Shown here one piece after another: positions 8,403 to 41,742 of a DNA stretch of 64,000 nt. A program made the translations under genes and the position numbers. Under the pieces are notes generated by a model. That model had not been told where the DNA came from. It ran no database searches and saw nothing but the letters and a program-made list of their open reading frames with translations. The number at the start of each line of letters is the position of its first letter. The stretch's first letter is position 1. Source of the stretch: Parcubacteria group bacterium (GTDB taxonomy: Bacteria; Patescibacteriota; Minisyncoccia; Minisyncoccales; UBA10102); NCBI GenBank assembly GCA_016203945.1, contig JACQLT010000002.1, positions 797 to 64,796 on the forward strand, in the 5' to 3' direction.

Positions 8403-9833
8403 TTACCGTTTAACTTTCACCCGCAAAAAAGCGGGGACATCCCATTTCTTCTCCTCTTCCTGGATCTCCTGAAGCTTCCCGTCCAGCTCCTGCTTGAGAT
8501 CTAGGGCGTTCTTTCTGGTTCTCTCTATTATTTCTTCCGTTTTCTCCTGTTGCCCGGCCAGGAGAATCTTTTTCACGCGCCTTGTTTTCTTTTGGACCAT
8601 ACGCGGTTTTTTCCGGGGCTCTACCGACTGCCTGCCGGCCCGCTTCGCCGAAACTTTAGCGAGGCGAGTAGGCATGGTTTTTTTCTCAGGTTCTCGGCTT
8701 ACTCTGAGTTTGTCGAAGGGCTGTTTTCCTGCCTTGCCGGCAGGCAGGCCTTCCACGCACCCCACGGCAAACAGCATAATCCTTAACTTGTCCCTGAACT
8801 CGGGGCGGAGTGTAATGCCCAGAATGATGCGGGCTTTTGGATTCAGGGAGAAAATTCCCCTGCTCACGTCAGCCACCTCATGCATCTTGACGTTCTTATC
8901 TGCTACCAGGTGAAAGAGAATACGGTCCGCTCCCTCCACCCCGTACTCGTGAAGAGAGTTCGCGAACAGTGCGTTCAGCGCCCCCTTTGCGCGCTCGGGT
9001 CCTGCAGAAACCGCAGCCGCAGCATACGCAAGGCGGCCCCTTCCCTCAAGGACCGACCGCACGTCTGCAAAATCAATATTGATAAGACCAGGACTATGCA
9101 GGGCGTCAATGAGCCCCCCCAAAGAATCGGCAAGGTTCCTGTTGAGCTGCGAAAGGGCTTGCGGAAACGGAGTGACCTTCTCTATGGTCTTAAAAATCTG
9201 CTCGTTCGGGATAACGGTGTAGGCGTTCACGAGCGGGCGGAGCTTCTCTAGCGACAAATTCGCGATGTCTTTGCGCTTCTTTCCCTCGAACTCAAAGGGT
9301 AGGGTAAAAATGCCAAGCACCAGGTTTTTCGCTTCCCGGGCTGCTTCTGCGAACACGGGAACCGCCCCGGATCCCGTTCCTCCTCCCAGAGAAGCTATGA
9401 GAATGGAGATGTCCTGCCCTTCAAAAAGTTTCTTGATGCGGTCTTTCTCAGATCGCGCCGCCTGCTCTCCAAGACCCGCATCCATGCCGCAGCCCAGGCC
9501 TCGCGTGAGCTTCTGGCCGAAAGGAAATACGCGGACTTTCCCGGAAACTTTCTTTAAGTCCTGCATGTCGGTGTTGGCCGCGAAAAAATCAGCCCTCGGG
9601 ACGCGAGACGCGATCTCCTCGACGATATTGCTTCCGCCTCCTCCGACGCCAACCACCCGGATTTTGGTCCGAGGGATATCAAACGAAGCGTCTGATTTTT
9701 TCTGCGTCCGCTTTGCCGAAGCTCCAGCGAGGCGAGCCGATTTTCTGGTCTTCTTTGCAGATCTGCGCTTTGCCTGCCTCGCCGTAGCTCGGCGAAAGCG
9801 GGTGGCCTTCTTGTTCCTACGGGCCTTTGACAT
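8403..9833 (-). CDS. ftsZ: cell division GTPase FtsZ with long basic N- and C-terminal extensions
   Basis: VVGVGGGGSNIV and GGGTGSGAVPV tubulin signatures; terminal WDVPAFLR matches the conserved FtsZ C-terminal peptide. ATG 9833 is preferred over TTG 9842 because of the promoter geometry. Confidence 0.9.
   Translation of the reverse strand: MSKARRNKKATRFRRATARQAKRRSAKKTRKSARLAGASAKRTQKKSDASFDIPRTKIRVVGVGGGGSNIVEEIASRVPRADFFAANTDMQDLKKVSGKVRVFPFGQKLTRGLGCGMDAGLGEQAARSEKDRIKKLFEGQDISILIASLGGGTGSGAVPVFAEAAREAKNLVLGIFTLPFEFEGKKRKDIANLSLEKLRPLVNAYTVIPNEQIFKTIEKVTPFPQALSQLNRNLADSLGGLIDALHSPGLINIDFADVRSVLEGRGRLAYAAAAVSAGPERAKGALNALFANSLHEYGVEGADRILFHLVADKNVKMHEVADVSRGIFSLNPKARIILGITLRPEFRDKLRIMLFAVGCVEGLPAGKAGKQPFDKLRVSREPEKKTMPTRLAKVSAKRAGRQSVEPRKKPRMVQKKTRRVKKILLAGQQEKTEEIIERTRKNALDLKQELDGKLQEIQEEEKKWDVPAFLRVKVKR
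8643..8668. repeat. GC-rich repeat copy (core CCGAAaCTTTAGCGAGG) in frame in the ftsZ C-terminal linker
   Basis: cttcgccgaaactttagcgaggcgag is 22/26 identical to 9711-9736. Translated as RLAKVSAKR. Confidence 0.7.
9711..9736. repeat. GC-rich repeat copy (core CCGAAGCTCCAGCGAGG) in frame in the ftsZ N-terminal extension
   Basis: ctttgccgaagctccagcgaggcgag, translated as ARLAGASAKR. Confidence 0.7.
9774..9798. repeat. diverged inverted copy of the same repeat in the ftsZ N-terminal extension
   Basis: rc = ctttcgccgagctacggcgaggcag, which resembles ctttgccgaagctccagcgaggcgag. Forms an inverted pair with 9711-9736. Confidence 0.5.
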
Positions 9834-9841
9834 ATTCTTCA

Positions 9842-9870
9842 AGTGTAGGGACCGGGTTGTTCTTTGTCAA
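9842..9870 (-). promoter_or_regulatory. ftsZ promoter TTGACA-N17-TACACT, 8 nt from ATG 9833
   Basis: rc of 9865-9870 = TTGACA and rc of 9842-9847 = TACACT. Only TGAAGAAT separates the -10 from the ATG. Confidence 0.55.
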
Positions 9871-10041
9871 ACCTCGTAGTAGAAATTTGATAATGCCCCA
9901 GATGATTTCTGGATCTGTTCTATGTAAACACGTTGTTCTCTTGCATTGACGCTTGTTTATCATATTGATCCGTACGGACATTAGATAGAAATTATTTTCA
10001 AATTTTCACTACGGGGTTGTACCCCCAGGCGCGTTTCCACG

Positions 10042-10074
10042 CAAAACAAAACCCCGCACGCAAGGCGTACGGGG
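10042..10074 (-). terminator. rho-independent terminator after the zinc-ribbon micro-ORF
   Basis: Minus strand: CCCCGTACGC-CTT-GCGTGCGGGG followed by TTTTGTTTTG. Confidence 0.7.
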
Positions 10075-10102
10075 AATTGGATGCTACCTATCTTAAGAGA
10101 TC

Positions 10103-10228
10103 TCAGCGAGCCGGACGCTTTGACTTGTAGCACTCTTTGCAGAATATCGGGCGACCTTCGGCTGGCTGAAAAGGCAACTCGGTAATTTTTGTCCCGCACT
10201 CAGAGCACTGCCAGTCTCCCTGGATCAT
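10103..10228 (-). CDS. stand-alone CxxC-x18-CxxC zinc-ribbon micro-protein (41 aa; 52 aa if GTG 10261)
   Basis: Below the 60-aa cut-off of the ORF track. Hand translation: MIQGDWQCSECGTKITELPFQPAEGRPIFCKECYKSKRPAR. GAGG lies upstream of the ATG. Own promoter and terminator. Confidence 0.65.
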   Translation of the reverse strand: MIQGDWQCSECGTKITELPFQPAEGRPIFCKECYKSKRPAR

Positions 10229-10316
10229 CGGCCTCGCAAAGGGTTTGTTGTTTTCTTCCACTGAATTGAAAAGTCAAATGGATATGTGATGTACCTCGAC
10301 GCGTACAGACAATCAT

Positions 10317-10345
10317 AGTATGGTATCCGTCTGCGCGAATGTCAA
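10317..10345 (-). promoter_or_regulatory. promoter TTGACA-N17-CATACT for the zinc-ribbon micro-ORF
   Basis: rc of 10340-10345 = TTGACA and rc of 10317-10322 = CATACT. Confidence 0.45.
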
Positions 10346-10354
10346 GTAAAGAGC

Positions 10355-10831
10355 TTATTGCACCCAGAGCAGTTCCACTTCAAACACGAGCGTTGAATTG
10401 GCGGGGATGCTGCCCACTGCGCGATCTCCGTAGGCTAATGCGGGAGAAATAGTGAGCTTTCGCTTCCCTCCCACTTTCATTCCCGGTATCCCCTGCTCCC
10501 ATCCTTCAATGACGCTCCTCTGCCCGATGGTGAAAGAGAAGGGCTCTCCGCGGTCGAGCGAACTGTCAAACTTCTTCCCGTCCGCCAAGGTTCCCGTGTA
10601 ATGCACGGATACCGTGCTCCCGGTTTTTGCTTCCGTTCCCGTCCCCACTACGATTTCCTCAATCCTCAATCCGTTTGGCTGTTCCATAGTTGGTGGTATA
10701 AATTGATCTTCTTGTGTCTGGAGGTTCAACAACCCCTTATTCTCCGAAGAGAAGCTGTCCGAGAACACGAAGTAGAGAATCCCTCCCGCGATGATAACGA
10801 CTCCGATACTCAACAAATGAGATAGTTTCAT
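10355..10831 (-). CDS. membrane-anchored FKBP-type peptidyl-prolyl cis-trans isomerase
   Basis: N-terminal TM, then VSVHYTGTLADGKKFDSS and GWEQGIPGMKVGGKRKLTISPALAYG. Confidence 0.92.
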   Translation of the reverse strand: MKLSHLLSIGVVIIAGGILYFVFSDSFSSENKGLLNLQTQEDQFIPPTMEQPNGLRIEEIVVGTGTEAKTGSTVSVHYTGTLADGKKFDSSLDRGEPFSFTIGQRSVIEGWEQGIPGMKVGGKRKLTISPALAYGDRAVGSIPANSTLVFEVELLWVQ

Positions 10832-10835
10832 ATTG

Positions 10836-12077
10836 CTATCTATACGAACGATGGCTTCTATCCTGATAGCCGCTTCTTCTTCGGCTCCACGGCCGCTGCT
10901 GAGACCTATACTGCGGCCTGGGAGCTACAAACTGGACCCGCGGAAGCTCGGGAAGCCTAGATATTGGCAGAGGTTTTCGGATGAGGCGCTCAATCGCACG
11001 CACCTCGTGCTGTTCCTGGGGCATGGCAAAGGTAATGGCATGGCCCTGTGCTCCTGCGCGCGCAGTCCTGCCGATGCGATGGACGTAGTCGTCTGACGTG
11101 GAAGGCAAGTCATAGTTAATCACCAGTTCAATGCCCACAACGTCAATGCCGCGGGAAGCGATGTCTGTTGCGACGAGCACGCGGTATCTTCCCGACTTGA
11201 ATCCTTCAAGGGCCTGCCTGCGCTGGCCCAGTGTCCTGTTTGAATGGATCTCTGCTGCCGCAACGCCGAGATTCTTAATGTGCCGCAAGATCTTGGTGGC
11301 CCCGTGTTTCGTCCTTGAGAACACCAGGGTCGGACCTTGATATGTCTCAAGCAGCTTTCCCAAAAGCGCTATCTTTTGTTCCCTGGGAACGATGAAAAGC
11401 TCTTGAGTGACGCCTTCTACGGTGGTGCCGCTGGGAGCCATTTCCACCCGCACCGGAAGCTTCATGGAAGCCGCGGCTATCTTCATGATCTCAGGCGGCA
11501 TGGTGGCTGAAAACAGCATGGTCTGGCGCTCTTTGGGAAGGCGCTCTAAAATCTTCCTGATCTGGGGAAGGAATCCCATGTCAAGCATGCGGTCGGCCTC
11601 GTCCAGCACGACGATACCCACTTCGTCCAGGCGAATGGTCCGCTGTTCTAAATGATCGATGAGTCTGCCCGGGGTCGCAATGATGATATGGGGCCTTTTG
11701 GAAAGGGCATGGATCTGGGGGCCTATGGAAAGCCCGCCTATAAGGACGGCGGTCCTCAATCCCAACACGCGGCTCATCTTCTGTATCTCTTCGTCAACCT
11801 GAAGGGCAAGTTCTCTGGTGGGGACGACGATAAGACCGCGCTTGCGTATCTGCTCCAAGCGCTGAAGCATGGGGATGCCAAAGGCAAGGGTCTTGCCGGT
11901 TCCCGTCTGCGCGATGCCCACCATGTCTTTCCCCTGAATTGCAATGGGAATTGCCTGGGATTGAATAGGCGTGGGTTCTGTAAACTTAAGACGCCGGAGT
12001 ATTTCTAAAATAGCCGGGGCAATGCCCAAGCCGTAAAAACTTGAGTTCGCCGCATGATATTGAACGCGGTTTTGCAT
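10836..12077 (-). CDS. DEAD-box ATP-dependent RNA helicase
   Basis: AQTGTGKT, VVLDEADRM, FSATMP, HRIGRTARAG; basic C-terminal tail. Confidence 0.93.
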   Translation of the reverse strand: MQNRVQYHAANSSFYGLGIAPAILEILRRLKFTEPTPIQSQAIPIAIQGKDMVGIAQTGTGKTLAFGIPMLQRLEQIRKRGLIVVPTRELALQVDEEIQKMSRVLGLRTAVLIGGLSIGPQIHALSKRPHIIIATPGRLIDHLEQRTIRLDEVGIVVLDEADRMLDMGFLPQIRKILERLPKERQTMLFSATMPPEIMKIAAASMKLPVRVEMAPSGTTVEGVTQELFIVPREQKIALLGKLLETYQGPTLVFSRTKHGATKILRHIKNLGVAAAEIHSNRTLGQRRQALEGFKSGRYRVLVATDIASRGIDVVGIELVINYDLPSTSDDYVHRIGRTARAGAQGHAITFAMPQEQHEVRAIERLIRKPLPISRLPELPRVQFVAPRPQYRSQQRPWSRRRSGYQDRSHRSYR

Positions 12078-12085
12078 GCGCCTGC

Positions 12086-12114
12086 AATATATCGCAAAAC
12101 AGAGAAACTATCAA
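12086..12114 (-). promoter_or_regulatory. promoter TTGATA-N17-TATATT, 8 nt from the helicase ATG
   Basis: rc of 12109-12114 = TTGATA and rc of 12086-12091 = TATATT. GCAGGCGC, then ATG at 12077. Confidence 0.5.
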
Positions 12115-12142
12115 GCTCGATAAATTTTATCCGGAAATAGAA

Positions 12143-12481
12143 TTATAACCCGGAGAGGTCGCTTTCTATCGCTTCGAGTTCGGCATCAAGTCCCGAAAGA
12201 TCGGTTTCGTTGAGATCGGCCTTAATGGCATCAAGCTCGTCGGAAGTTCGCACGCTTTGCAAATCTTTTGCGGTTGCGTCTTCCCCAGAAGGAATGGCGA
12301 GTCCTTCGGCTTGAAGCGCCTGCTGTTCTTCTTGAGTCAACTCAATCGGAGTTAAATCCTGCTCAATCGTAATGGACTCCTTCTGATACGAAGGGCCACG
12401 GTTCAAGAAAAATAATATTCCTCCCGCAACAACAACGAGGATAATGATTACACTGATAAGTTTGTTTTTGCTTATGGTCAT
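12143..12481 (-). CDS. hypothetical TM-anchored acidic protein
   Basis: N-terminal TM (LISVIIILVVVAGGILFF) and a D/E-rich ectodomain. ATG follows the upstream stop by 2 nt. Confidence 0.5.
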   Translation of the reverse strand: MTISKNKLISVIIILVVVAGGILFFLNRGPSYQKESITIEQDLTPIELTQEEQQALQAEGLAIPSGEDATAKDLQSVRTSDELDAIKADLNETDLSGLDAELEAIESDLSGL

Positions 12482-12483
12482 GA

Positions 12484-13899
12484 TTATATACTGGTATTTG
12501 ATCTGGAACTGTTGTAATCGTCGGCTGCTTGTGCATGCACCTCAATAATTATGGCGCGGAGGTTTTCTATGTCTGTTTTAAGCTCCGCGGCTATGGCGCG
12601 GGCTTCTTCCGCAACTCCTCCTACATTTTCGCCCAAAAGCAGCGATTCATATTTCGCCTTAAGCTCTTCCATCTTTGCCTCGTTTTCAACGCTCATACTT
12701 TTAGCTTTCTCAATAAGCGGGGCTGTTGATGATGTATCAATCCCTTGCGCTTCAAGTTTTAGAATCCGCAATTCCAGCCGGCCTAAAATATGGTCAAACC
12801 GGGCCATTGCCGAGCGGTAACGATTGAGCATGCGCAATCCTTTGCCGTGGGCAACGGCAATGCGCGCCGTTTTTCCGTGATCCACATGGCCTATTGTTGT
12901 TTCAACATTTTCTCGGAAATTATCGCGAAGCGCTTTTGCGGCTTCATGAACTGCGGGCTCACGAACCTTCTGTACGGCCGGCAGTAATAAAGCGGATCGT
13001 TGTAGATCTGATAGCGCCGAATCGGTCTGATGTAAGAGCGCCCGCTCCAGTCCCAACACATCCGCAATCAAACCCTTGTCTTCCACAGCCGCAAGCAACT
13101 CAATGTCGCCCTCAACAATCTTTTTTACGGTCAGAAGCGACTGGATTGCCTCTTCTTTTCTGCCGTCTTTGATCGCCTTCTCTGCCTCAGTCGTCACGTC
13201 CGCCCTGCTCTTTGCATGGTCCCCAACCGTTATGCATACCTTTGTATCACAACCCTTGAGCCGTTCCTGTATCTTCCCAATGGTATTCTGCATCAACTCA
13301 ATCTTTTTACCAGGGATTCCTTGAATTTTAATATATGATTTAGATTGCGGGGTATCTCCTGCGCTAGGAGCAGAAACTTTACGTTGGTTTCCATCTGTAT
13401 CCTCAATCTGTGTTTCTCCTGCAGGTGCCGATTTAGTGTTGGATTTGGACTCGTTGTAGTTCTTTCCCGCGGCTGGAGCAGGAACCGCCCCTGAAGTAAA
13501 TTCTTTTTCGGGAGAATCAGCTCTGCGATCGGGAAAGCCGTGTGCGTTACCGTCTCCTGCAGATTCTTTTGTAGCAGAATCAGCTCCGGCGCCAAGCTCA
13601 TCAAGTTTTGTTAAAACTTCCTGGATGCCAGGGTCGCTTACACCAAATCTAACTAGCATCGCCCTGAGGTCAACCGTGCTAATGCCTCGAGCAAGAGCAT
13701 CCGTCACCTCATTGATCTCCGCGCCGCCAATGCCGTAGCGCAAAAGAATATCTCCAACGTGTTTGTTTGCTATTGGTATGTTTACTACTGATATTGAGGT
13801 ATTTGACCTCGAGCTGTTGTAATCGTCGGCAGAAAATACAGCCGCAGCAGAGAGTACCGCTGCCCCCACGATGAATATTGTGATTATTTTTATACGCAT
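12484..13899 (-). CDS. hypothetical secreted protein with identical 13-aa terminal peptides
   Basis: Signal peptide MRIKIITIFIVGAAVLSAAAVFS. ADDYNSSRSNTSI follows it directly and recurs as the last 13 residues. Helical C-terminal half; no family recognised. Confidence 0.6.
   Translation of the reverse strand: MRIKIITIFIVGAAVLSAAAVFSADDYNSSRSNTSISVVNIPIANKHVGDILLRYGIGGAEINEVTDALARGISTVDLRAMLVRFGVSDPGIQEVLTKLDELGAGADSATKESAGDGNAHGFPDRRADSPEKEFTSGAVPAPAAGKNYNESKSNTKSAPAGETQIEDTDGNQRKVSAPSAGDTPQSKSYIKIQGIPGKKIELMQNTIGKIQERLKGCDTKVCITVGDHAKSRADVTTEAEKAIKDGRKEEAIQSLLTVKKIVEGDIELLAAVEDKGLIADVLGLERALLHQTDSALSDLQRSALLLPAVQKVREPAVHEAAKALRDNFRENVETTIGHVDHGKTARIAVAHGKGLRMLNRYRSAMARFDHILGRLELRILKLEAQGIDTSSTAPLIEKAKSMSVENEAKMEELKAKYESLLLGENVGGVAEEARAIAAELKTDIENLRAIIIEVHAQAADDYNSSRSNTSI
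12487..12525 (-). repeat. C-terminal ADDYNSSRSNTSI coding copy
   Basis: GCC GAC GAT TAC AAC AGT TCC AGA TCA AAT ACC AGT ATA. Confidence 0.85.
13792..13830 (-). repeat. N-terminal (post-signal) ADDYNSSRSNTSI coding copy
   Basis: GCC GAC GAT TAC AAC AGC TCG AGG TCA AAT ACC TCA ATA. Same peptide; differs from 12487-12525 only at synonymous sites. Confidence 0.85.
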
Positions 13900-13921
13900 A
13901 AATTTGTATGCTGATATTTCA

Positions 13922-13949
13922 ACTTTACCTTATCTGGTGATAGCGTCAA
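13922..13949 (-). promoter_or_regulatory. candidate promoter TTGACG-N16-TAAAGT upstream of the 471-aa gene
   Basis: rc of 13944-13949 = TTGACG and rc of 13922-13927 = TAAAGT. 22-nt leader without an obvious SD. Confidence 0.35.
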
Positions 13950-13996
13950 GAGGAAAAAAACGGCTGTGCGTGTCTGACTTGCACAGCTATGCAGGG

Positions 13997-14029
13997 GTCT
14001 CGGTCACCTGACTTAGCATATGACGGCTG
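13997..14029. repeat. 33-bp direct repeat, distal copy
   Basis: gtctcggtcacctgacttagcatatgacggctg, identical to 15049-15081. Confidence 0.9.
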
Positions 14030-14121
14030 TGTACCTTGGCCTAGAACCAAGGGGTTAAGAGGGATTTCATGGATTTCTAGGGATGTCTCATTGACCCGTC
14101 TCGGTCACACGATCAAATGGA

Positions 14122-14283
14122 CTAAGTAAATAAAAGTTTGAATATCTCAAATATGATCCAGGTAGTAATAAAGCCAATGCCGTACAAAAGCAAAAAACTT
14201 AGAAACGAACGTTTTTTATTGATACCAAAACTAACAACAAGTACTTCTACAGCAGCAAGTATTGCAATAAAATCGAAATTCAT
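14122..14283 (-). CDS. hypothetical 53-aa two-TM micro-protein
   Basis: Not in the ORF track (<60 aa). MNFDFIAILAAVEVLVVSFGINKKRSFLSFLLLYGIGFITTWIIFEIFKLLFT. ATG lies 1 nt after the upstream TAA. Confidence 0.35.
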   Translation of the reverse strand: MNFDFIAILAAVEVLVVSFGINKKRSFLSFLLLYGIGFITTWIIFEIFKLLFT

Positions 14284-14284
14284 A

Positions 14285-14458
14285 TTATTTTTCTAATCCT
14301 TTTTCGTGTAAACAATTCTCATGGAGAACTCCAGCGAATTCTTTTTTAGCACACTCTTTTCTGATTTGCGTCGGCCGCCACTCATACCAATAAAAAACAA
14401 ACTCTAAAACTATAAGCAGTATTAAGACGATGTATTTATATTGTTTTATTTTTCCCAC
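14285..14458 (-). CDS. possible 57-aa single-TM micro-protein (GTG start)
   Basis: VGKIKQYKYIVLILLIVLEFVFYWYEWRPTQIRKECAKKEFAGVLHENCLHEKGLEK. The only possible start is a GTG, with no SD. Confidence 0.2.
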   Translation of the reverse strand: MGKIKQYKYIVLILLIVLEFVFYWYEWRPTQIRKECAKKEFAGVLHENCLHEKGLEK

Positions 14459-14530
14459 ATACTTAGTTGAAGTCTATTTTAATGCAAGAGTATCTTAATC
14501 TATTCGTCTCGGTCGAGATTCTATCCAAAA

Positions 14531-15043
14531 TTATGGTGTTAATCGAAGCACTTTCTCAATAATGGGAAAAGCGAGAAAAAGAACCCATAATGATAAAATA
14601 ATATTTCCAGCCAGATATGCCGGTCCAGCTAAATGCGAGTTGAAATATGGGATAAAAGGAATAGCAATTAGCGCCAAAGCCACATTAGATAAGCAAACAA
14701 CTGCGAACGTCTTTAAATCAATTGTAAGTTCTCGCATGGAAGCTTCTATTTTTGTTATATCTTCGGCAATAACCCCTATAGGGACACTCATCCTATCTCG
14801 CTTCGTCTGATCTCGTTGCAATTTGAATACGGCAAGCATCCCCAAGAAAGCTACCAACGCAACAAATCCTTGGACTATGGTGCTGAACGAATAGTAGTAA
14901 ACATACGAACCTCCTTGTCCAAAGAGAGCCGTAAGGTCAAAAAGACCCTTCAGCAAATACGTAACTAGCCCACTCAAAAGAAACGGCATTATAATATGAC
15001 CGACTCTATATTTCCGCATAATTTTCTTTAATTTATTAGTCAT
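14531..15043 (-). CDS. hypothetical 4-TM membrane protein
   Basis: 170-aa ORF in the AT-rich islet with four hydrophobic helices. No family recognised. Confidence 0.55.
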   Translation of the reverse strand: MTNKLKKIMRKYRVGHIIMPFLLSGLVTYLLKGLFDLTALFGQGGSYVYYYSFSTIVQGFVALVAFLGMLAVFKLQRDQTKRDRMSVPIGVIAEDITKIEASMRELTIDLKTFAVVCLSNVALALIAIPFIPYFNSHLAGPAYLAGNIILSLWVLFLAFPIIEKVLRLTP

Positions 15044-15048
15044 AACGC

Positions 15049-15081
15049 GTCTCGGTCACCTGACTTAGCATATGACGGCTG
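15049..15081. repeat. 33-bp direct repeat, tRNA-proximal copy
   Basis: Identical to 13997-14029. Its last 3 nt are the 3' end of tRNA-Gln. Confidence 0.9.
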
Positions 15082-15149
15082 CGGGACCAGGATTCGAACC
15101 TAGATTAACGGATTCAGAGTCCGCTGTCCTACCATTAGACGATCCCGCA
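15079..15149 (-). tRNA. tRNA-Gln (anticodon CUG)
   Basis: rc: TGCGGGA-TC-GTCT..GGAC-A-GCGGA-CTCTGAA-TCCGT-TAAT-CTAGG-TTCGAAT-CCTGG-TCCCGCA-G. The U1-A72 pair is typical of bacterial tRNA-Gln. Confidence 0.88.
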
Positions 15150-15389
15150 ATGTTTCATTTTCGCTTTTAATGCGCGCTTCCCTTTTGCTGTTTTATAAAA
15201 TCGCTCGATTCTAAATGCCTCATATTTATCTTCGTATTGTTCAGAATAGATTAATTTTATTGGCAACCTATTCTTTGTAGAACGAACTCTTCCTGACTGA
15301 TGAATTGCGATTCGCTTGTTTAAATCTTCGGTGCATCCGATGTACAGATTACCATCTCTCTCGCTTCTCAAAATATACACCGTATGCAT
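15135..15389 (-). CDS. GIY-YIG (URI-domain) nuclease, 84 aa
   Basis: VYILRSERDGNLYIGCTEDLNKRIAIH..., with downstream R and E residues of the GIY-YIG fold. The last five codons plus stop (TGC GGG ATC GTC TAA) are nt 1-15 of tRNA-Gln. Confidence 0.85.
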   Translation of the reverse strand: MHTVYILRSERDGNLYIGCTEDLNKRIAIHQSGRVRSTKNRLPIKLIYSEQYEDKYEAFRIERFYKTAKGKRALKAKMKHCGIV

Positions 15390-15396
15390 ACTATAT

Positions 15397-15461
15397 GTCC
15401 TACCATTAGCCTCGCCCGTAGGCCAGTAGCCTTCGGGCTACGGCCGAGGGACGATCCCGCA
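15397..15461 (-). pseudogene. orphan tRNA-Gln 5' fragment interrupted by a 41-nt GC-rich hairpin
   Basis: TGCGGGATCGT + CCCTCGGCCGTAGCCCGAAGGCTACTGGCCTACGGGCGAGG + CTAATGGTAGGAC. No anticodon or T arm follows. Confidence 0.6.
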
Positions 15462-15482
15462 AAGTAGTGGACTGCGGTGCGA

Positions 15483-16394: not shown

Positions 16395-16398
16395 ATGA

Positions 16399-34883: not shown

Positions 34884-34893
34884 ATAATAATAC

Positions 34894-36342
34894 TCAGGGC
34901 AGGAACACGAAATTATGAAACTGCCATGGATCGGAATCCGAAACGCTTGCCGGATTGCCTTGAAAATATGTGGTGCGATTTTTTAATGGAGTCCAGTCGG
35001 AAGGAGTAGAGATGAATTCGCCCAGATATGGTTTGGCGATATCCAGCACAAAGTCATGCGGCAGGTCATCTGGCAAATTGATGCCTTTGTTCGGATTCTC
35101 AAGCATCCAAAGCACCGCGGCAATGACTCCGGCCGCCACTTGAAGCGTAGTGGCATTTTGGTTCGGGATCAGACGCCTGGTCTCTTCAATAGAGAGATTG
35201 CTTCCGGTCCACCACGAGCCATATGCATGCCCCATAAGAAGGGCTCCCAGGATATCGGCTCCCGTAGTGATCTCGTTCGACATGATGCGCTGCTTTGCAG
35301 GCAACACGTAGTTCAGACCGCGCAATTCGTGCAACGAAGAAAGTGTCTCGTGGCACGGCATATAGGCATAGTGCACGGTCGGACGATGAACTACTTGGCC
35401 GTTTTCCCAAACAGTAAGCCGATCAGAAATACCGAATGCCTCTCCGTGCCGAATCACCATGCCGACGATTTCCTCGTCTGGAATCCACGACCTCACCCAG
35501 GTATTCATCCCCATCTGGTTCAGGAAAATCTGATTTTTCGGGCCATATTCGGGAACAACCGCATGCGCGGGAATTTTCTTTTCGTGCGTGCCCCAGCCCA
35601 TTTCAGAGGGCGCACTTCCCTCTTCACGCAATCCCTCAATGCTCCACGTGCCGACAAATTCGTTGACCTCTTTGGGCTGGTTTGTGATCTGCGTGTCGCG
35701 CTCTGAGCAATGAATCACCTTGACTCCAAGCTTTTGGGCGAGCTTCGCAAAGTTGCGGTCTTTCACGTACCGATTAATTTCTTCCTGGTCTGCTTGCGAA
35801 ACTTTTTTGTCTGCAATAAGCCTGTTGCCAATATCCACCAAGCCCTGCTTGGTAAAGTGAGAAATGAGCCCCGGATTTGCCCCGTGGTCCACGACAGCGG
35901 TAGTCGAGTTTTTCCAATCCTTGCCAAGCTCAGCCAATTGCATCTGCAGGAAATACAGTGATTTTTGAAGCGGAGTTTCCGTCTGAATCCCGGTGTAGGG
36001 ATCCCATGTCTCCACCGAAGTGTTGACATACAATACATTGTGGTTATGACACCACGTCAGAATGTCCACACAGCCGATATTCCAAGCCAAATCAATGATC
36101 AACCCTCCATCATCCACATTCTCAGAGAGAATTTTGTCAAGGTTCTCTTTGACGATCTTTTTCTTTACATATTTCACTCCCAGGTCCGTATATTTTTTCA
36201 ACGCTTCGGATTTGTCGTCAAAATCAATGACGGTCACGTTTGAAAACGGCGCATCTATCTTTTCAAACAAAAGCGGAATCGTACACTGAGAGACGGACCC
36301 GTATCCGATAACAAGAATTTTATGGCCAAATTTCTTTTTCAC
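34894..36342 (-). CDS. hss: homospermidine synthase
   Basis: ILVIGYGSVSQCTIPLL, HGANPGLISHF, FVGTWSIEG, SIEETRRLIPNQNATTLQVAAG and DPWQFHNF parallel the bacterial HSS sequence as I recall it (from memory, no alignment run). GTG start. Confidence 0.88.
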   Translation of the reverse strand: MKKKFGHKILVIGYGSVSQCTIPLLFEKIDAPFSNVTVIDFDDKSEALKKYTDLGVKYVKKKIVKENLDKILSENVDDGGLIIDLAWNIGCVDILTWCHNHNVLYVNTSVETWDPYTGIQTETPLQKSLYFLQMQLAELGKDWKNSTTAVVDHGANPGLISHFTKQGLVDIGNRLIADKKVSQADQEEINRYVKDRNFAKLAQKLGVKVIHCSERDTQITNQPKEVNEFVGTWSIEGLREEGSAPSEMGWGTHEKKIPAHAVVPEYGPKNQIFLNQMGMNTWVRSWIPDEEIVGMVIRHGEAFGISDRLTVWENGQVVHRPTVHYAYMPCHETLSSLHELRGLNYVLPAKQRIMSNEITTGADILGALLMGHAYGSWWTGSNLSIEETRRLIPNQNATTLQVAAGVIAAVLWMLENPNKGINLPDDLPHDFVLDIAKPYLGEFISTPSDWTPLKNRTTYFQGNPASVSDSDPWQFHNFVFLP

Positions 36343-36395
36343 TTTTTGTATTATCTTTTCGAAGATTTTTTTATGAAAAATTCTTCGATTACATC

Positions 36396-36423
36396 ATCGT
36401 ACAACAGCCAAGAGTGTTGTCAA
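36396..36423 (-). promoter_or_regulatory. promoter TTGACA-N16-TACGAT upstream of hss
   Basis: rc of 36418-36423 = TTGACA and rc of 36396-36401 = TACGAT. The 53-nt leader contains an AT-rich imperfect palindrome (36361-36388). Confidence 0.45.
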
Positions 36424-36433
36424 GAGTTTTTTG

Positions 36434-36466
36434 GCAAAAAATAAAAAACGGGCAGCTTGGTGCCCG
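36434..36466 (-). terminator. rho-independent terminator after the secA/DUF3850 unit
   Basis: CGGGCACC-AA-GCTGCCCG followed by TTTTTTATTTTTTG. Confidence 0.7.
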
Positions 36467-36497
36467 ATATCTTTTGAAAATTTTGCTCTCGCAGTGA

Positions 36498-36764
36498 TTA
36501 TTCCAGAGAAATAATCTGGATTCCCTTTTCTTTTATTTCACTTTCTGGCCAAAATAGCTTATCAATTTTAAATTTCGCAACATAGTTTACTTTCTTCTCA
36601 GTCTTTCTGCCTGTATATGCTTTCGTCTTCTGGTCCCACTCTTCCAATACGAGCATATCGCCTTCTGCAACGTCAAAATCATCCAGCCGCAGCTCAAACT
36701 TCTTTTTCCCGGAAGCAACTGCTTCAAAATACTCCGGCCAGATTTTCTTCTTGATGATTGCCAT
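36498..36764 (-). CDS. ASCH/DUF3850-like small protein
   Basis: MAIIKKKIWPEYFEAVASGKKKFELRLDDFDVAEGDMLVLEE. ATG 36764 lies just after the secA stop. Confidence 0.6.
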   Translation of the reverse strand: MAIIKKKIWPEYFEAVASGKKKFELRLDDFDVAEGDMLVLEEWDQKTKAYTGRKTEKKVNYVAKFKIDKLFWPESEIKEKGIQIISLE

Positions 36765-36765
36765 G

Positions 36766-39234
36766 CTATTGTCCGTGGCAACGTTTATATTTTTTGCCAG
36801 AACCACAGGGACACGGATCATTCCTTCCCACTTTTGGCATAGACTGTACGGGCTTGCCCTCCGAAGCCCCGAGCGAAGTCGAGGGGACAGAGGTGGAAGC
36901 CAACTTCATATTCATGATGGTTTCTGCGATCAAAGCGTCTATGATCTGCAAAAGACCCTGAAACATCTTGTGCCCCTCGTTCTTGTATTCCACCAAAGGG
37001 TCCTGCTGGCCGTACGCGCGCAATCGCACAGAATCCCGCAGCTGCTCCATGTTCTCCAAGTGTTCCACCCACGAGGAATCAATGACGCGCAGAGGAATGA
37101 TCCTCTCTGCCTGGCGCATGTTCTCCTCACCAACCTCCTGTTCTTTCTTCTCATACTCTTCTTGCGTGTGTCCTGCCTTTTGCGTAATAGCCATGATCTT
37201 GGACCTCAGCTGCGCGGGGTCCTGCTGCTCCAGCATCTCGTTCCTCTTGCGATACATTGTCTCTCGATGCCGGTTCAGTACGTCGTCATACTCAAGCAAA
37301 TGCTTCCTGGCGTCAAAGTTGAATCCTTCCACCTTGCCCTGGGCAGACTCAATGGCCTTGGAAACCATAGCGTGCTGAATGGGCTCGCCTTCCGGCAAGT
37401 GGAATTTTTCCATGATGCCTTTTAGCTTGTCCCCTCCGAATATTCTCATGAGGTCGTCCTCCAGGGATACAAAAAACTGGGAAGAGCCCGGATCTCCCTG
37501 CCTTCCAGACCTGCCGCGCAGCTGGTTGTCAATACGGCGGGCCTCGTGGCGTTCGGTACCGATAACATAAAGACCGCCCAGGCTTCGACACTGCTCAGCC
37601 TCTTTAAGAACCTGCGGGTTCCCTCCGAGAACGATATCCACGCCCCGGCCCGCCATGTTGGTCGCTATGGTCACGGCCCCCTTTCTTCCTGCCTGCGCGA
37701 TGATGGCTCCCTCTCGCTCGTGGTTCTTCGCGTTCAGCACCTCGTGGGGAACGCCGTCCCGCGACAGCAGCTGCGAAAGACGCTCGTTCCTCTGGATGGA
37801 AGCCGTGCCAACGAGCATGGGCTGCCCTTTGAGGTGTCGTTCTTTCACTTCCCGCACAACGGCATTGAACTTTTCTTCTTCTGTTTTATACACCAGGTCC
37901 CGAAGATCCTGGCGGACTAAAGGCTTGTTCGTTGGAATCGAAAGCACGTCAATGTTATATACCTTGTGAAACTCCTCAGCTGAAGTGAGAGCCGTGCCGG
38001 TCATGCCGGCCAACTTCTTATACATGCGGAAATAGTTCTGGAACGTGATAGAGGCCAGCGTCAAGGATTCCGGCTGCACGAATACATTCTCTTTTGCCTC
38101 AAGCGCCTGGTGCAAGCCTCCTGAATATCTGCGGCCCGGAAGCAAACGGCCCGTGAACTCGTCCACGATGACGAGCTGCCCGTCTTTCACCACGTAGTCG
38201 CGGTCCCGCTGAAACATCGCCTCTGCTCGCAGGGCTTGCTCTAAATGATGCAGATACTTGATCCCTTTTTCCTGATAGATATCTCCTGCTCCGATGAGTT
38301 CTTGAACATGGTCAATCCCGTGTTCGGTCAGCGTGACCGCTTTTCTTTTTTCGTCTATTTCATAATCGGTTTCGGCTTTGAGTTTTGGAATCAATCTCGC
38401 AAAATCTTTGTACCAGGAAGAGCTTTGCGTATCGGGGGCTGAAATAATAAGCGGGGTACGCGCTTCGTCAATAAGAATAGAGTCGACTTCGTCTACGATG
38501 GCAAAGTTATGCCCCCGCTGCACCATATGCGCCAAGTCGTAGACCATGTTGTCTTTGAGATAATCGAATCCGAATTCATTGTTTGTGCCATATGTAATAT
38601 CCGCAGCGTATGCGTCTTTTCGTGAAACCGGCCTTAAAAACTTTTCCACTATCTTGAATCCTCCCACGGCATCCCTCTCCTTATCGATAGGCTCGCCCTC
38701 CGAAGCTTTAGCGAAGGAGGGGTCATATATATATGAGGTGTCGTGCACGATACATCCCACCGACAGCCCCAGCGCGTGGTAGATCTGACCCATCCAGGCG
38801 GCGTCCCGGCGCGCAAGATAGTCGTTCACCGTCACCACGTGCACTCCCTTGCCCTCCAGTGCATTCAGGGCAGTTGCCAGGGTTGCGACAAGCGTCTTTC
38901 CTTCTCCGGTCTTCATTTCCGCGATCTTTCCCCGATGCAAAGCAATGCCGCCCATAAGCTGCACGTCAAAATGGCGCTGACTCAAAGTGCGCAAGGCAGC
39001 TTCTCTCACAAGCGCAAAGCACTCCGGCAGCACGTCGTTGAGCGTTTCACCTGCCTCGCCGGTAGGCGGGCCCTTTTGGACCCGCTCGCGCAGCTGGCTG
39101 AAACGTTCTGCGAGCTGTGCCAAGGAAAGATCCTTGAGCGCAGTTTCCTCTCCATTAATCTCCTCGACCAAAGGACGCATGCTCGCAACAACGCGCTCAT
39201 CCGCATCTCCTAAGATTTTGCCGAGTATGCTCAT
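36766..39234 (-). CDS. secA: preprotein translocase ATPase SecA
   Basis: [42 protein letters not shown]-terminal zinc finger [14 protein letters not shown]. Confidence 0.96.
36853..36886. repeat. GC-rich repeat copy in frame near the secA C-terminus
   Basis: cttgccctccgaagccccgagcgaagtcgagggg, translated as [22 protein letters not shown] arms flank the CCGAAGC..AGCGAAG core. Confidence 0.65.
38692..38722. repeat. GC-rich repeat copy in frame inside secA
   Basis: ctcgccctccgaagctttagcgaaggagggg, translated as [11 protein letters not shown]. Confidence 0.65.
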
Positions 39235-39279
39235 CTCGTTATAAAGCCTCTCTATTATTCATTACTTTCGTTATTTTGT

Positions 39280-39313
39280 AAATGAAAAGGGGCGAGAACT
39301 GTGTCCTCACCCC
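39280..39313 (-). terminator. rho-independent terminator after the GNAT gene
   Basis: GGGGTGAG-GACACAGTT-CTCGCCCC followed by TTTTCATTT. Confidence 0.6.
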
Positions 39314-39333
39314 TTGGTGTCCGCCAAAGCGGC

Positions 39334-39855
39334 TTATTCCCCGAGAACGGTTTCCGGCCGAGCCCAGAACCATGCCTGGTCCTTCTCCTCTCCATCGTAC
39401 TCCCAGACGTCCGGGATGACGACGGTCTTGAATGGCTTAAAGACCTTCTCGTAGAAGCCCTTGCTGCCGGCCGAGCTGACGACGAAGACCGTCGCAATCT
39501 CGAACCCCTCAAAGATGACATCTCCTTCCACGAACTGCCGCAGAGTCTCTCTGACGAGGCGCCTGCCGATGCCGCTCTGCTGCAGGTCCTCGCGGACTGC
39601 GATGAAGTCGAGCTCCAGGCTGACGCGTTCGTCGGAGGCGTCAGAGACGCCCCAGACGATCGCCCCGACCAGTTTCCTGCCGTGGAAGGCGGCAAACACC
39701 TGGCACCAGGGATGATCCTGGAGATAGTCGTTCATCCACCGATGGTGGACGCCCCGCCGATTTTCCTCTTCGTAGATCTCCGCAGCCAGAAGGTGCGAGA
39801 CCTTTCTGATCAGCCGTTGATCTTGCGGATTGATCCGTCGAATCTGGACTTCCAC
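39334..39855 (-). CDS. GNAT-family acetyltransferase
   Basis: FIAVREDLQQSGIGRRLVRETL. GTG start with AGAAGGA SD 9 nt upstream. Higher GC than its neighbours. Confidence 0.7.
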   Translation of the reverse strand: MEVQIRRINPQDQRLIRKVSHLLAAEIYEEENRRGVHHRWMNDYLQDHPWCQVFAAFHGRKLVGAIVWGVSDASDERVSLELDFIAVREDLQQSGIGRRLVRETLRQFVEGDVIFEGFEIATVFVVSSAGSKGFYEKVFKPFKTVVIPDVWEYDGEEKDQAWFWARPETVLGE

Positions 39856-39989
39856 CTGAAATTTCCTTCTTTCACTAAATTGCCGTGTGTACCAAAAAAG
39901 ATAGTAGCATGTTATAAAAAGTCAAGTTGTGAATAACTTGGCTCGGCCAAGGATAGGTCGAGGATAAAGCGAAAAGAAAATGCCCCGCG

Positions 39990-40460
39990 TCAGGCGACGG
40001 GGGCGGGTTCGAAAACGGGCTCAAGGAAGGGCGGCGTAGCCTCTTCCCTAAGCCGGAATGTCTCAGAGTTGTTGTTTGCGTGCGTTGTGTACAAGCGAAC
40101 AAACAACCCGTGGACTTTCTCCAGCTCGACCGAGCAGAAAGCCTCACACACCGGGCATTCGAACTGCAGAGGCAAACACCTCTCCGGAATCTCGGACCCG
40201 TGTTTGATGAGAATCTCCGAGCAGCACCGCTTCAGAACCGGGGGCGTTGTTGATCCCTCAGGCTTGAGGAACGGGTAGCCCTTCAGGGAATCGACCGTCC
40301 AAACGATGGATGAGGCAAGGTTAGTGTACCTGTTCCGCTTTTCCTTGCGCCACGGATGACTGTTGGGAAGACACACGAACTCCTTTCCGTCTTCGTAGAA
40401 TTTTCCCCATTGGAGAATCCAATTCTCGCAACAGTTAAGAAGAATCGTTCTGCCAATCAT
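39990..40460 (-). CDS. hypothetical Cys-rich protein
   Basis: 156 aa with 11 Cys, including CPVCEAFC. Canonical promoter and AAAGGAG SD 8 nt from the ATG. No family recognised. Confidence 0.6.
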   Translation of the reverse strand: MIGRTILLNCCENWILQWGKFYEDGKEFVCLPNSHPWRKEKRNRYTNLASSIVWTVDSLKGYPFLKPEGSTTPPVLKRCCSEILIKHGSEIPERCLPLQFECPVCEAFCSVELEKVHGLFVRLYTTHANNNSETFRLREEATPPFLEPVFEPAPVA

Positions 40461-40499
40461 GTCGAAACTCCTTTCGAAACTTCCGAAATGGCTATTGAC

Positions 40500-40528
40500 A
40501 TCCTAATCTATGCACATATGCTTGTCAA
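40500..40528 (-). promoter_or_regulatory. promoter TTGACA-N17-TAGGAT for the Cys-rich ORF
   Basis: rc of 40523-40528 = TTGACA and rc of 40500-40505 = TAGGAT. Confidence 0.5.
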
Positions 40529-40546
40529 TAAAAAGGACCGAGAGAA

Positions 40547-41503
40547 TTATCGCACGAATTGGATTTCTTCCTCTAGCCGCGCGCCGAATTTCTTTTTTGC
40601 TTGCTTTTTTACTTTTTCAGCAAGTTTTTTTACATCTTCTGCTTTTCCGTTTCCCAAATTCACCATGTAATTCGGGTGTTTTGTTGAAACTTGAATGTCC
40701 CCCACGCGCAGGCCCTTCAATCCGGCCTCTGCAATGATAGCTGCCGTAGGGATGACGGGAAAGGGATCGATCTTGATGACGCTGGCGAAGTGCTTCTGCC
40801 AACGAGTCGACATTTTTTTGACATCGCAGTTCTTAAACACGCTTCCCGCATTAGGATACTCAAGAGGGTGACGCTCTCTGCGATATCTCATATGGCTCTT
40901 CGCAATCCTGGAAAGCTCTTTTGCGTTCCCCTTTTTCAGACGGAGGCGAGCCGCAAACACGACGTACTTCTTTTCCTTGAATAGCGAGGATCGATAGGAA
41001 AACTTGCACTGCGCCTTTGAAAACGTGCGCACACGACCCTTCTCGTTAATCGCTTTGACGGAGACGACCGCATCTTTGATTTCTCCTCCGAAAGCTCCAG
41101 CGTTCCCTCGTACGGCTCCTCCCAGGGTACCTGGAAGTCCTCCCGCCCATTCCAATCCTGCCAACCCGCGCTTTGCGGTTTCTCTCACAAGTAAATCCAT
41201 AGAAACTCCGGCGCCTGCAACAACGCGCGTGCCTGTAATTGTATAGTTCTTTATATTTATAAAAATGACGAGGCCTTTGAACCCCTTGTCTGCTATCACC
41301 ACGTTGCTGCCTCCTGCCAAAACGAAAAATGGAGTTCTGCGGGACTTCGCCGCCCGCAGCGCACGGATGACGGCAGACGGGGTACGCGCAATAAAAAAAT
41401 ATCTCGCGAGGCCTCCTATGCGAAATGTCGTATACGGTGCTAACAATACTCCTTCCCGAGCTTGAGGAAGGAGCTGCTGTATCGATTTCTTCGATGTATT
41501 CAT
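40547..41503 (-). CDS. murB: UDP-N-acetylenolpyruvoylglucosamine reductase
   Basis: LAPYTTFRIGG, VLAGGSNVV, GAGVSMDLL, NAGSVFKN. ATG 41503 (MNTSKKS) is preferred. Confidence 0.9.
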   Translation of the reverse strand: MNTSKKSIQQLLPQAREGVLLAPYTTFRIGGLARYFFIARTPSAVIRALRAAKSRRTPFFVLAGGSNVVIADKGFKGLVIFINIKNYTITGTRVVAGAGVSMDLLVRETAKRGLAGLEWAGGLPGTLGGAVRGNAGAFGGEIKDAVVSVKAINEKGRVRTFSKAQCKFSYRSSLFKEKKYVVFAARLRLKKGNAKELSRIAKSHMRYRRERHPLEYPNAGSVFKNCDVKKMSTRWQKHFASVIKIDPFPVIPTAAIIAEAGLKGLRVGDIQVSTKHPNYMVNLGNGKAEDVKKLAEKVKKQAKKKFGARLEEEIQFVR

Positions 41504-41607
41504 AATATCCGCTATGGGCCGGAGGAGTAAACTCCAATACAAAGTCTTTTGTGAGTGCTGCCTCCGACCCGGCTTTATTTTTACACGGGGGCATAAAAAA
41601 AGCAAAA

Positions 41608-41742
41608 GGCCTCGCTGGAGGTTGAAGCAAACTGCTTTGCTTCAACGGGCGTTTTAGCGAAGCTTTAGCGAGCGTTAAAAAACGCCCAGTGCCCCCGAGA
41701 GCGGGTGTCTTAAAAAGTAACAGATCCCGCTCGAGGGGGATC
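41608..41742 (-). repeat. cluster of three strong hairpins containing two more copies of the GC-rich repeat core
   Basis: 41621-41646 has an 11-bp perfect stem. 41647-41687 is GGGCGTTTT...AAAACGCCC enclosing agcgaagctttagcgagcg. 41723-41742 is GATCCC..GGGATC. 41608-41621 has rc CCTCCAGCGAGGCC. Confidence 0.6.

Follow-up and report, generated by a model that had tools for sequence, protein, structure and literature searches.

Hairpin-forming repeats of 21–30 nt, inserted in frame in ftsZ and secA of a Parcubacteria-group bacterium, and the cross-phylum, nuclease-linked family of the secA type

The ftsZ and secA genes of a Parcubacteria-group bacterium carry short GC-rich repeats. We read them as very small (21–30 nt) hairpin-forming DNA elements that spread in genomes and that proteins tolerate, in translated form, when an in-frame copy falls in a permissive loop or tail; we put the probability of this reading at roughly 60%. 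The repeats lie in a stretch of 64,000 nt (hereafter the window) of a metagenome-assembled genome (MAG) placed near Wildermuthbacteria, with locus tags HY458_* and a contig of 248,619 bp. An earlier note on this DNA had proposed that palindromic elements colonise both its non-coding parts and the loops or tails of essential proteins, and comparison with orthologues supports that idea. Codon alignments with close relatives show the repeat-bearing segments of both genes to be discrete insertions. The secA-type element is pan-bacterial and not private to this genome; its structure, breadth, genomic contexts and reciprocal linkage to a nuclease gene are documented below. The two genes and the insertions found in them are the following.

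8403–9833, minus strand: ftsZ, 476 aa counted from ATG
36766–39234, minus strand: secA, 822 aa
38692–38721, plus strand (antisense to the gene): canonical 30-nt secA unit CTCG-CCCTC-CGAAGCTTTAGCGAAG-GAGGG, with the exact core; 10-aa translation
36853–36885, plus strand: diverged 33-nt copy CTTG-CCCTC-CGAAGC-CCCGA-GCGAAG-TC-GAGGG in the C-terminal linker of secA; 11-aa translation
39049–39069, unstranded: 21-nt insertion of a second family near the secA N terminus, ending ...GGCGAGGCAGG; translation PPTGEAG
9705–9734, plus strand: 30-nt insertion ins2 in the ftsZ N tail, with core variant CGAAGCTCCAGCGAGG; antisense translation RLAGASAKRT; lacking in L004 and L006
9774–9803, minus strand: 30-nt insertion ins1 in the ftsZ N tail; translation TRFRRATARQ; lacking in L004 and L006
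8628–8678, plus strand: 51-nt insertion in the ftsZ C-terminal linker; translation TMPTRLAKVSAKRAGRQ; lacking in L004, L005, L006, L395 and L396
8640–8668, plus strand: repeat copy within the 51-nt insertion, sequence CGAAACTTTAGCGAGG
8730–8750, unstranded: 21-nt near-palindrome of CCTGCCTTGCCGGCAGGCAGG type in ftsZ; translation GLPAGKA; an indel relative to L004 and L006

We aligned the window FtsZ and SecA, codon by codon, with the DNA of close relatives (74–99% identical), and scored copies with R1, a covariance model of the sequence and structure of the widespread family. The clearest event separates two relatives, L001 and L002, that are 99.45% identical across 12.6 kb: their single real indel is a 30-nt hairpin unit in secA. 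This unit, (C)TTG-GCCGA-CGAAGCCTTGGCGAAG-GCGGC, sits in L001 between VQRG and H, just before DEVD, in the conserved DEAD-motor region, with a few clustered substitutions around it (R1 score 23.8 bits, E=1.6e-4). No target duplication is visible at the site, and its placement is ambiguous by 1 nt.

The canonical secA copy of the window reaches 47.9 bits (38694–38723, E=6e-12) and is predicted to fold into a stem, a 3x3 GAA-GAA internal loop, a GC-GC step and a TTTA loop. Its excision leaves Y-D-P-I-D-K-E-R-D, in which YDP is invariant among 21 SecA sequences. The copy is probably a clean insertion, with an empty site absent from the close relatives, and it occupies a loop that varies across SecA proteins. 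The diverged copy scores 16.2 bits (36855–36887, E=0.024) and retains the same tag and arms; the CCCTC/GAGGG arms previously described for both secA copies are indeed there. At its site L001 and L002 have a decayed homologous stretch, and L003 a shorter linker. The 21-nt insertion at 39049–39069 is present in the window, L001 and L002, and is lacking in L003 and all 17 more distant SecA sequences aligned. It matches the ftsZ near-palindrome 8730–8750 at 17 of 21 positions, the two defining a second small palindrome family; palindromes related to the ftsZ member occur in an intergenic region of L006 and at 3385–3396 of L001/L002.

The window ftsZ has four discrete in-frame insertions, of 30 and 30 nt in the N tail and of 21 and 51 nt in the C tail, each with conserved codons on both sides. 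FtsZ orthologues with 74–87% amino-acid identity lack exactly these segments and conserve the flanking codons. When all indels of 4 aa or more that separate the window from six relatives are listed without selection, these GC-rich quasi-palindromes predominate. The segments had been described as related copies, and this holds: 8643–8668 and 9711–9736 agree at 22 of 26 positions (25 of 29 across 8640–8668 and 9708–9736). The diverged inverted copy noted around 9774–9798 is also real, since the reverse complement of 9770–9806 aligns on 9705–9740 with 23 matches, 2 mismatches and 2 one-base gaps. Thus ins1 is inverted relative to ins2, 39 nt away. The peptide GLPAGKAG was correctly attributed to a palindrome, the 21-nt indel at 8730–8750; PFDKLRVSREP lies in a stretch that is variable among the relatives, and its status as an element could not be established.

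Related insertions appear elsewhere in FtsZ. L005 has the 21-mer GCCCGCCTTGC[T/G]GCGAGGCAG in its C tail, and L395 has it in its N tail (20 of 21 nt identical); the same 21-mer at different FtsZ positions in two lineages argues for a DNA element rather than a conserved peptide. Both of these insertions, like ins1, stand immediately 5' of GCAAAGCGC, and all three directly precede G(C/T)(A/G)AAGCGC, a context that we propose is favoured by ftsZ-type elements. L396 ftsZ has a 21-nt antisense form. The 30-nt ftsZ-type forms correspond to the 21-nt forms with 9 nt added within the loop. Taken together, the ftsZ-tail elements (stem CGCYTYGC/GCRARGCG, 21 and 30 nt) are plausibly a diverged or sister subfamily: R1 gives the C-tail copy (8642–8670) 12.3 bits (E=0.35) and has no match at E<=10 to the N-tail copies. 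A single family for the ftsZ and secA copies, as first claimed, therefore stays plausible from the 13–14 of 16 core positions in common, and is not demonstrated by these scores.

In L395 (GCA_001823425.1, MHUL01000038.1) a run of N begins inside an apparent 30-nt ftsZ-type insertion in the C tail, after ...CAGAAGAAA GCCCGCCTTCGCCGA, so that the deposited FtsZ is truncated. Hairpin elements seem to break short-read assemblies in this way.

The exact pattern CCGAAGC-N3/4-AGCGARG occurs three times in the window (9716, 36861 and 38700, all on the plus strand) and not once in 100 shuffles. Together with the matches in public collections, nearly always with complementary arms, this places the core above chance. 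The four clearest coding copies had been said to be read in one relative frame; their translations confirm a single codon phase, C-CGA-AGC-TTT-AGC-GAA-GG. The TAA predicted for one alternative frame of the TTTAG variant is present, in one antisense phase. The density is low: the 64 kb contain a single canonical copy and a few diverged ones, too few for k-mer over-representation to pick out the core. At the gathering score, the window gave Rfam matches to tRNAs and RNase P only; at permissive thresholds the canonical copy drew only a chance microRNA match (E=5.6). Two short hairpins, at 5177–5199 (minus strand; stem-CGAA-N-GAAG-stem) and 39733–39751 (stem-CGA-N-stem), reach R1 E-values of 0.03 and 0.4, weak scores that either chance or a minimal or decayed form of the family may explain.

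Outside this genome, a scan of IMG/VR with the exact core CGAAGCTTTAGCGARG gives many matches with adjoining complementary arms that differ by locus, and core-plus-arm units occur in many phage-like contigs. The exact 16-mer is found in species-representative genomes at no fewer than 120 loci (at least 122 matches) in many phyla, with complementary arms in nearly all. Both scans required the exact core, and all their counts are among the matches listed. These include Patescibacteria, Bacteroidota, Alpha-, Gamma- and Deltaproteobacteria, Verrucomicrobia, Planctomycetes, Nitrospirae, Omnitrophota and Bdellovibrionota, with isolate and complete genomes of Bradyrhizobium, Mesorhizobium, Geomonas and Pseudobdellovibrio (NZ_CP176530.1).

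The family unit is 30 nt long: the tag (C)YTG at its 5' end, then the core CG(A/T)AGC-YTTR-GCGAAG enclosed by two complementary arms of 5 nt each. Arm positions 1–5 of the unfiltered genome matches are 80–88% Watson–Crick paired, and complementarity ends there. In the 5' flank of 121 genome matches, T, T and G occupy positions −8 to −6 in 47, 43 and 68%; neither end bears GTAG or CGTC. The arms covary, which indicates that pairing is selected: over 132 distinct hairpins, double-sided changes number 196 cells, compared with 64 ± 7 after shuffling, and 90% are paired against 25–50% with the partner slid, the pre-filter applied to these hairpins and to R1 (at least 4 of 5 arm positions paired) inflating the percentage paired and not the double-sided changes. 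On either strand, the predicted fold has a 6-bp stem that includes the core C:G pair, a symmetric GAA/GAA internal loop, two G–C pairs and a TTTA loop; as RNA its stability is −14 to −17 kcal/mol, with z = −3 to −4. A variant with a CTTG loop, the type inserted in L001, follows the same rules, with paired arms in 47 of 100 contexts and the same C(C/T)TG tag.

That the unit measures 30 nt follows from three polymorphic or derived indels of this length, from three nested copies in which the inner unit lengthens the outer tetraloop by exactly 30 nt, and from a conserved 5' extension without 3' counterpart. A unit of 30 nt preserves the reading frame. Clusters and inverted or tandem pairs exist (L174, L166, L093, L022, L079 and L123), and additional copies that the core had not picked are grouped around the first, at distances of no more than a few hundred nt. 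The idea that one arm is templated from the target, in the manner of palindromic P nucleotides, was rejected as a general rule: the L001 insertion has both arms, and the 21-nt element is constant at differing targets. BLAST of the 30-nt consensus against plasmids returned only weak, uninformative matches. A full-text literature search with the core on both strands as DNA and RNA, the encoded peptides, and GIY-YIG combined with tRNA, hairpin or REP (repetitive extragenic palindrome) found no description of the family, which is not proof of novelty.

About 25% of the evaluable genome matches lie at least 50 aa inside long open reading frames (ORFs), as often sense as antisense (11:11). The coding copies use all four of the six frames that are free of stops, so that one core yields RSFSEGG, EALAK, SLKLR or FAKAS according to frame and orientation. 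Host ORFs include those of SecA, IleRS, the NAD-dependent ligase LigA, an ATP-ligase, Tgt and a histidine kinase; the Tgt copy sits within an extra 18 aa that solved Tgt structures lack. The Saccharibacteria IleRS with the FAKASEG hairpin peptide (L192) also has LRQAQGEKA near its N terminus (...SVALRQAQGEKAKFF...), which looks like a GC-rich repeat-derived insertion of another family.

One could suppose that no element exists, and that these segments are low-complexity basic or Ala-rich coding sequence shaped by slippage and duplication, or artefacts of metagenome assembly. The FtsZ tails are indeed K/R/A-rich and variable in length, and the L395 assembly gap falls at such a site. Loose core patterns with one mismatch allowed are near chance in the window (8 against 3.7; 4 against 3.9). 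One of them matches ERFAALRE in L003 secA, which we rejected as ordinary coding sequence resembling the core by chance; the loose pattern is not diagnostic, and core similarity alone is accordingly weak evidence for diverged copies. Against this explanation, the DNA is conserved while the peptides change with orientation, and the same units appear in non-coding DNA and beside tRNAs. Their arms are about 85% complementary where 25% is expected by chance, copies reside in isolate and complete genomes, and independent assemblies carry them in different genes. The explanation is largely refuted, and we consider it very improbable.

The non-coding copies favour the ends of tRNA and tmRNA genes. Among 122 hairpins, 24 lie within 100 nt of such a gene against 3.0 expected (about 8-fold), and 12 within 5 nt against 1.2. 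Eighteen of the 24 are on the 3' side of the tRNA, often overlapping its CCA end, including copies in 16S–23S spacers. In a Bacteroidetes MAG (L174, 7380–7625), the 3' half of tRNA-Arg is repeated, next to an intact tRNA-Arg, as three tandem pseudo-copies, each with a family hairpin (variant CTTCGCC[G/A]AGGCT[A/T]CGG) inserted in the T-loop. In a Hyphomicrobiales MAG (L139, 4916–5372), a canonical hairpin lies inside a permuted two-piece tmRNA called by ARAGORN, probably in its intervening segment.

Unsupervised clustering of the ORFs near the hairpins revealed one recurrent small protein, a bare GIY-YIG domain of about 80 aa. PF01541 matches three members of the linked family, including the window gene, at E=1e-14 to 1e-15. 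The nearest solved structures to the nuclease profile are the UPF0213 proteins 1zg2 (E=1.6e-16) and 1ywl, followed by SLX1. Among loci selected by the hairpin, tblastn gives 14 nuclease matches in 12 of 120, and the window adds one more. The elements come in a typical order, tRNA, then one or more hairpins, then nuclease gene: the hairpin is usually 4–30 nt upstream of the gene on the same strand, its 3' arm is often GGAGG-like, and the tRNA or tmRNA lies further upstream.

The linkage also holds in reverse. We picked 80 metagenome loci by the nuclease protein alone, using three sequences as queries, the ten-sequence alignment being too diverse for locus search. A hairpin was found 0–300 nt upstream in 60 of 74 loci (81%), and the upstream 11% of the DNA contains 98 of the 105 R1 matches. 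A tRNA or tmRNA on the same strand is located 94–330 nt upstream in 36 of 48, tRNA-Gln being the commonest. These copies were not selected by the core, and their consensus is still TG-arm-CG(A/T)AGC-YTTR-GCGAAG-arm (TG in 93%), with an apical part that is sometimes a longer stem.

The window has a locus of this kind.

15180–15389, minus strand: stand-alone GIY-YIG gene; PF01541 E=9e-15; tblastn to the hairpin-linked nuclease family, 38% identity, E=7e-13
15410–15449, minus strand: non-canonical 40-nt hairpin, not matched by R1, that splits a duplicated tRNA-Gln 5' fragment (15450–15460 and 15396–15409)

The gene lies between the tRNA-Gln 5' fragment and the intact tRNA-Gln (15077–15149), with the hairpin 20 nt upstream; the earlier note had already reported that a hairpin interrupts this fragment, and it does.

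By analogy with REPs and their associated tyrosine transposases (RAYTs), and with the structure-specific activity of SLX1-type GIY-YIG enzymes, we infer that the nuclease mobilises the hairpin. Nuclease-linked hairpins would be the home copies and the scattered solo hairpins their non-autonomous derivatives, paralleling REP and RAYT. The structure-specific nuclease might recognise the conserved internal loop of an extruded or single-stranded hairpin and nick it; repair or replication would then copy the 30-nt unit to new sites. As the unit preserves the frame and four of its six frames are free of stops, a fraction of insertions in surface loops would survive. In its strongest form, the 30-nt hairpin and the ~80-aa UPF0213-type GIY-YIG nuclease would be an undescribed cross-phylum selfish partnership: a cassette at tRNA ends, whose enzyme recognises the GAA/GAA loop and drives the copying of frame-neutral units, also into essential genes of the reduced genomes of the candidate phyla radiation (CPR), where they become new protein loops. 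Such a system would be REP/RAYT-like and mechanistically unrelated. We advance this version only tentatively, as somewhat less probable than its negation.

Several points weigh against mobile elements, or against this role of the nuclease. Scans with an exact core carry an ascertainment bias, as do the pre-filtered hairpins behind the covariation and R1, and most sequences analysed are metagenome assemblies. The ftsZ copies do not pass the family model. Arms differ between copies and some overlap tRNA acceptor ends, which fits selection of hairpins in situ at least as well as copy-and-paste. Roughly 90% of the hairpin-selected loci listed have no nuclease gene within 8 kb, and the reverse test is biased to one nuclease subfamily of at least 64% identity. 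The GIY-YIG gene of the window shares only 38% identity with the linked family, and a hairpin of non-canonical form precedes it. Finally, the linkage could mean that the hairpin is a regulatory or terminator element of the gene and not its substrate.

This last point leads to the main rival, according to which the hairpin is a selected RNA or DNA signal (a terminator, an attenuator, a tRNA 3'-end protection or processing signal, or a translational operator of the GIY-YIG gene), with a core that binds a host factor or the self-regulating nuclease, and the scattered and intragenic copies are by-products. The position of most tRNA-proximal hairpins 3' of the tRNA and over its CCA end speaks for it, as do the covarying arms, the stable RNA fold, and the hairpin 4–25 nt before the nuclease start codon with its often GGAGG-like 3' arm. 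Other observations weaken it. Arm mismatches (34 G-T against 29 A-C) show no G-T excess; being balanced, they give no sign of selection on one transcribed strand and are neutral on which RNA strand might be selected. A T run (TTTT 5–17 nt past the arm) follows 8 of 77 non-coding copies on the purine strand and 3 on the other, and with T runs this rare the intrinsic-terminator idea is mostly rejected. Orientation inside genes is even, and no Rfam family matches. The signal also leaves unexplained the fresh 30-nt insertion in the SecA motor domain between strains 99.4% identical, and the copies nested in each other's loops. This rival, weakened, still stands for the tRNA-adjacent copies; as a general account it appears unlikely.

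Palindromes that enter reading frames are known in few lineages (REPs in repair genes, palindromic elements in Rickettsia), and the 30-nt unit here is much smaller. Across Bradyrhizobium, Akkermansia, Bacteroidota, Nitrospirae and many CPR lineages its core hardly changes. If the nuclease link is causal, the large uncharacterised UPF0213/YhbQ family gains a function, and a second nuclease-plus-hairpin system, of different mechanism, takes its place beside REP/RAYT. The link would then also explain the recurrent odd proteome peptides RSFSEGG, FAKASEG, SLKLRR and EALAKEG, and provide a source of the lineage-specific insertions in CPR FtsZ, SecA, IleRS, LigA and Tgt. In practice, the units break assemblies, as at the L395 gap, and inflate apparent protein divergence in disordered tails.

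Other features of the window touch these subjects. Two intergenic copies of the repeat had been proposed, of which one stands.

41647–41687, plus strand: intergenic hairpin with a 9-bp stem (GGGCGTTTT/AAAACGCCC) whose loop holds the core variant AGCGAAGCTTTAGCGAGCG

This hairpin, containing CGAAGCTTTAGCGAGC, belongs to an extra hairpin cluster of ~120 nt between murB and its upstream gene that is lacking in the homologous spacer of L002; R1 matches its apical 10 nt only. The second, 41608–41621, was rejected as a repeat copy, being part of a terminator-like stem conserved in the relative L002. In the same spacer, a promoter-like TTGACA...TGATAAGAT is conserved between the peptidoglycan-binding-domain gene and murB (window 41690–41810, minus strand; L001 3740–3780; L002 3905–3990; L003 4030–4130). 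It is followed by a small conserved hairpin (GTTCCCGCAAGGGAGC) and a CTCGAGCG-containing hairpin, common to all relatives; promoter and hairpins may represent a small RNA or leader.

At the locus downstream of ftsX and upstream of tRNA-Gln, where the window has its GIY-YIG gene, L006 has a LAGLIDADG_3 gene (2815–3522; tRNA-Gln 3532–3605). Both genes are preceded by a tRNA-Gln D-arm fragment (CTAATGGTAG), and the locus looks like a hot spot where differing genes of homing-endonuclease type enter the 5' part of the tRNA. L006 has a family hairpin 26 nt after its tRNA-Gln. A direct repeat, 82% identical between 13997–14051 and 15049–15103, covers the tRNA-Gln 3' region with the last tRNA bases and a degenerate T-arm. 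Between its two units lies about 1 kb of DNA with an ORF at 14531–15043, and the repeat resembles the duplication of an att site by an integrated element. Elsewhere, several direct repeats of 50–99 nt (74–87% identity) link 52703–54075 and 55751–57077 at a constant spacing of ~3.0 kb, and indicate a tandem duplication of a ~3-kb gene block.

The closest known counterparts are the REPs. These are GC-rich hairpins of 20–40 nt with a tetranucleotide tag at one end that lie mostly downstream of genes, as single copies, inverted pairs or clusters (Di Nocera et al. 2013, PMC3733652). Some are intragenic and translated, in uvrA and other repair genes, and the linked RAYT gene is flanked by its own repeats (PMC3733652). 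The family described here likewise has a short GC-rich stem-loop (6 bp, against REP stems of 6–13 bp), single copies, inverted dimers such as the ftsZ pair of the window, clusters, a dedicated nuclease or transposase gene, and occasional translation inside genes. It is thus conceivable that it is an ordinary REP, or a REP-based REPIN, moved by a RAYT-type (HUH, Y1) transposase whose gene lies at another place in the genome, the GIY-YIG link being incidental at tRNA-flanking hot spots. Size, the layout of tag and hairpin, clusters, inverted pairs, post-gene location and intragenic copies match published REPs, and the complex loop (unpaired trinucleotides, GC pairs, a loop of 2–4 nt) resembles that of GTAG-3 REPs (PMC3733652). 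However, the tag is (C)YTG instead of GTAG or CGTC; the loop and core are conserved while the stem varies, where in REPs the stem is conserved; and one core spans many phyla, CPR genomes of ~1 Mb included, whereas REP families are genus-specific. The linked gene is GIY-YIG and not HUH Y1, and the association with tRNA and tmRNA ends is strong. No Y1 transposase is among the families recurring near the hairpins, in a clustering that included no search aimed at RAYT (PF01797), whereas GIY-YIG recurred and has the 81% reverse association. We therefore regard an ordinary REP as quite improbable.

Rickettsia palindromic elements (RPEs), described by Ogata et al. in 2000, reportedly measure ~100–150 bp and are restricted to Rickettsia. 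Like them, the elements of the window are inserted in frame in protein-coding genes and lacking in orthologues; in contrast, they are units of 21, 30 or 33 nt, well below RPE size, and their family is pan-bacterial. RPE-4 and RPE-6 have been treated as CGTC REPs (PMC3733652). Compared with miniature inverted-repeat transposable elements, the arms are inverted repeats of only 5 nt, and variable, with no visible duplication at the L001/L002 site and no parent insertion sequence found among the loci compared.

Yeast var1 GC clusters and Allomyces double-hairpin elements are tiny GC-rich mitochondrial hairpins in intergenic, tRNA-flanking, and coding or rRNA sites. They share with the present family the invasion of intergenic DNA, tRNA flanks and, in frame, coding or rRNA genes; they differ in belonging to organelle genomes and in their unrelated sequences. 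We know of no linked GIY-YIG gene for mitochondrial hairpin elements. Sponge mitochondria reportedly have similar tiny GC-rich repetitive hairpin elements (PMC2800124).

Two GIY-YIG systems are relevant. SegB of phage T4 is reported to be a free-standing GIY-YIG homing endonuclease in a tRNA gene region, forming a selfish cassette (PMC2330249). The likeness is a GIY-YIG gene among tRNA genes, the window gene lying inside a duplicated tRNA-Gln 5' part; Seg proteins differ in having ~200 aa or more with a DNA-binding domain and long asymmetric sites, against a catalytic domain of ~80 aa and a conserved hairpin here. Nucleases of SLX1/ANKLE1 type are reported to cut branched and cruciform DNA (PMC8287910, PMC10287932). 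SLX1 is the nearest solved relative after UPF0213 and its cutting activity is what our model needs, while SLX1 and ANKLE1 are eukaryotic repair enzymes with partner subunits. To our knowledge, this type has not been linked to repeated hairpins. The linked gene most resembles UPF0213/YhbQ, a family of about 80–100 aa in which, as here, the GIY-YIG domain makes up the whole protein.

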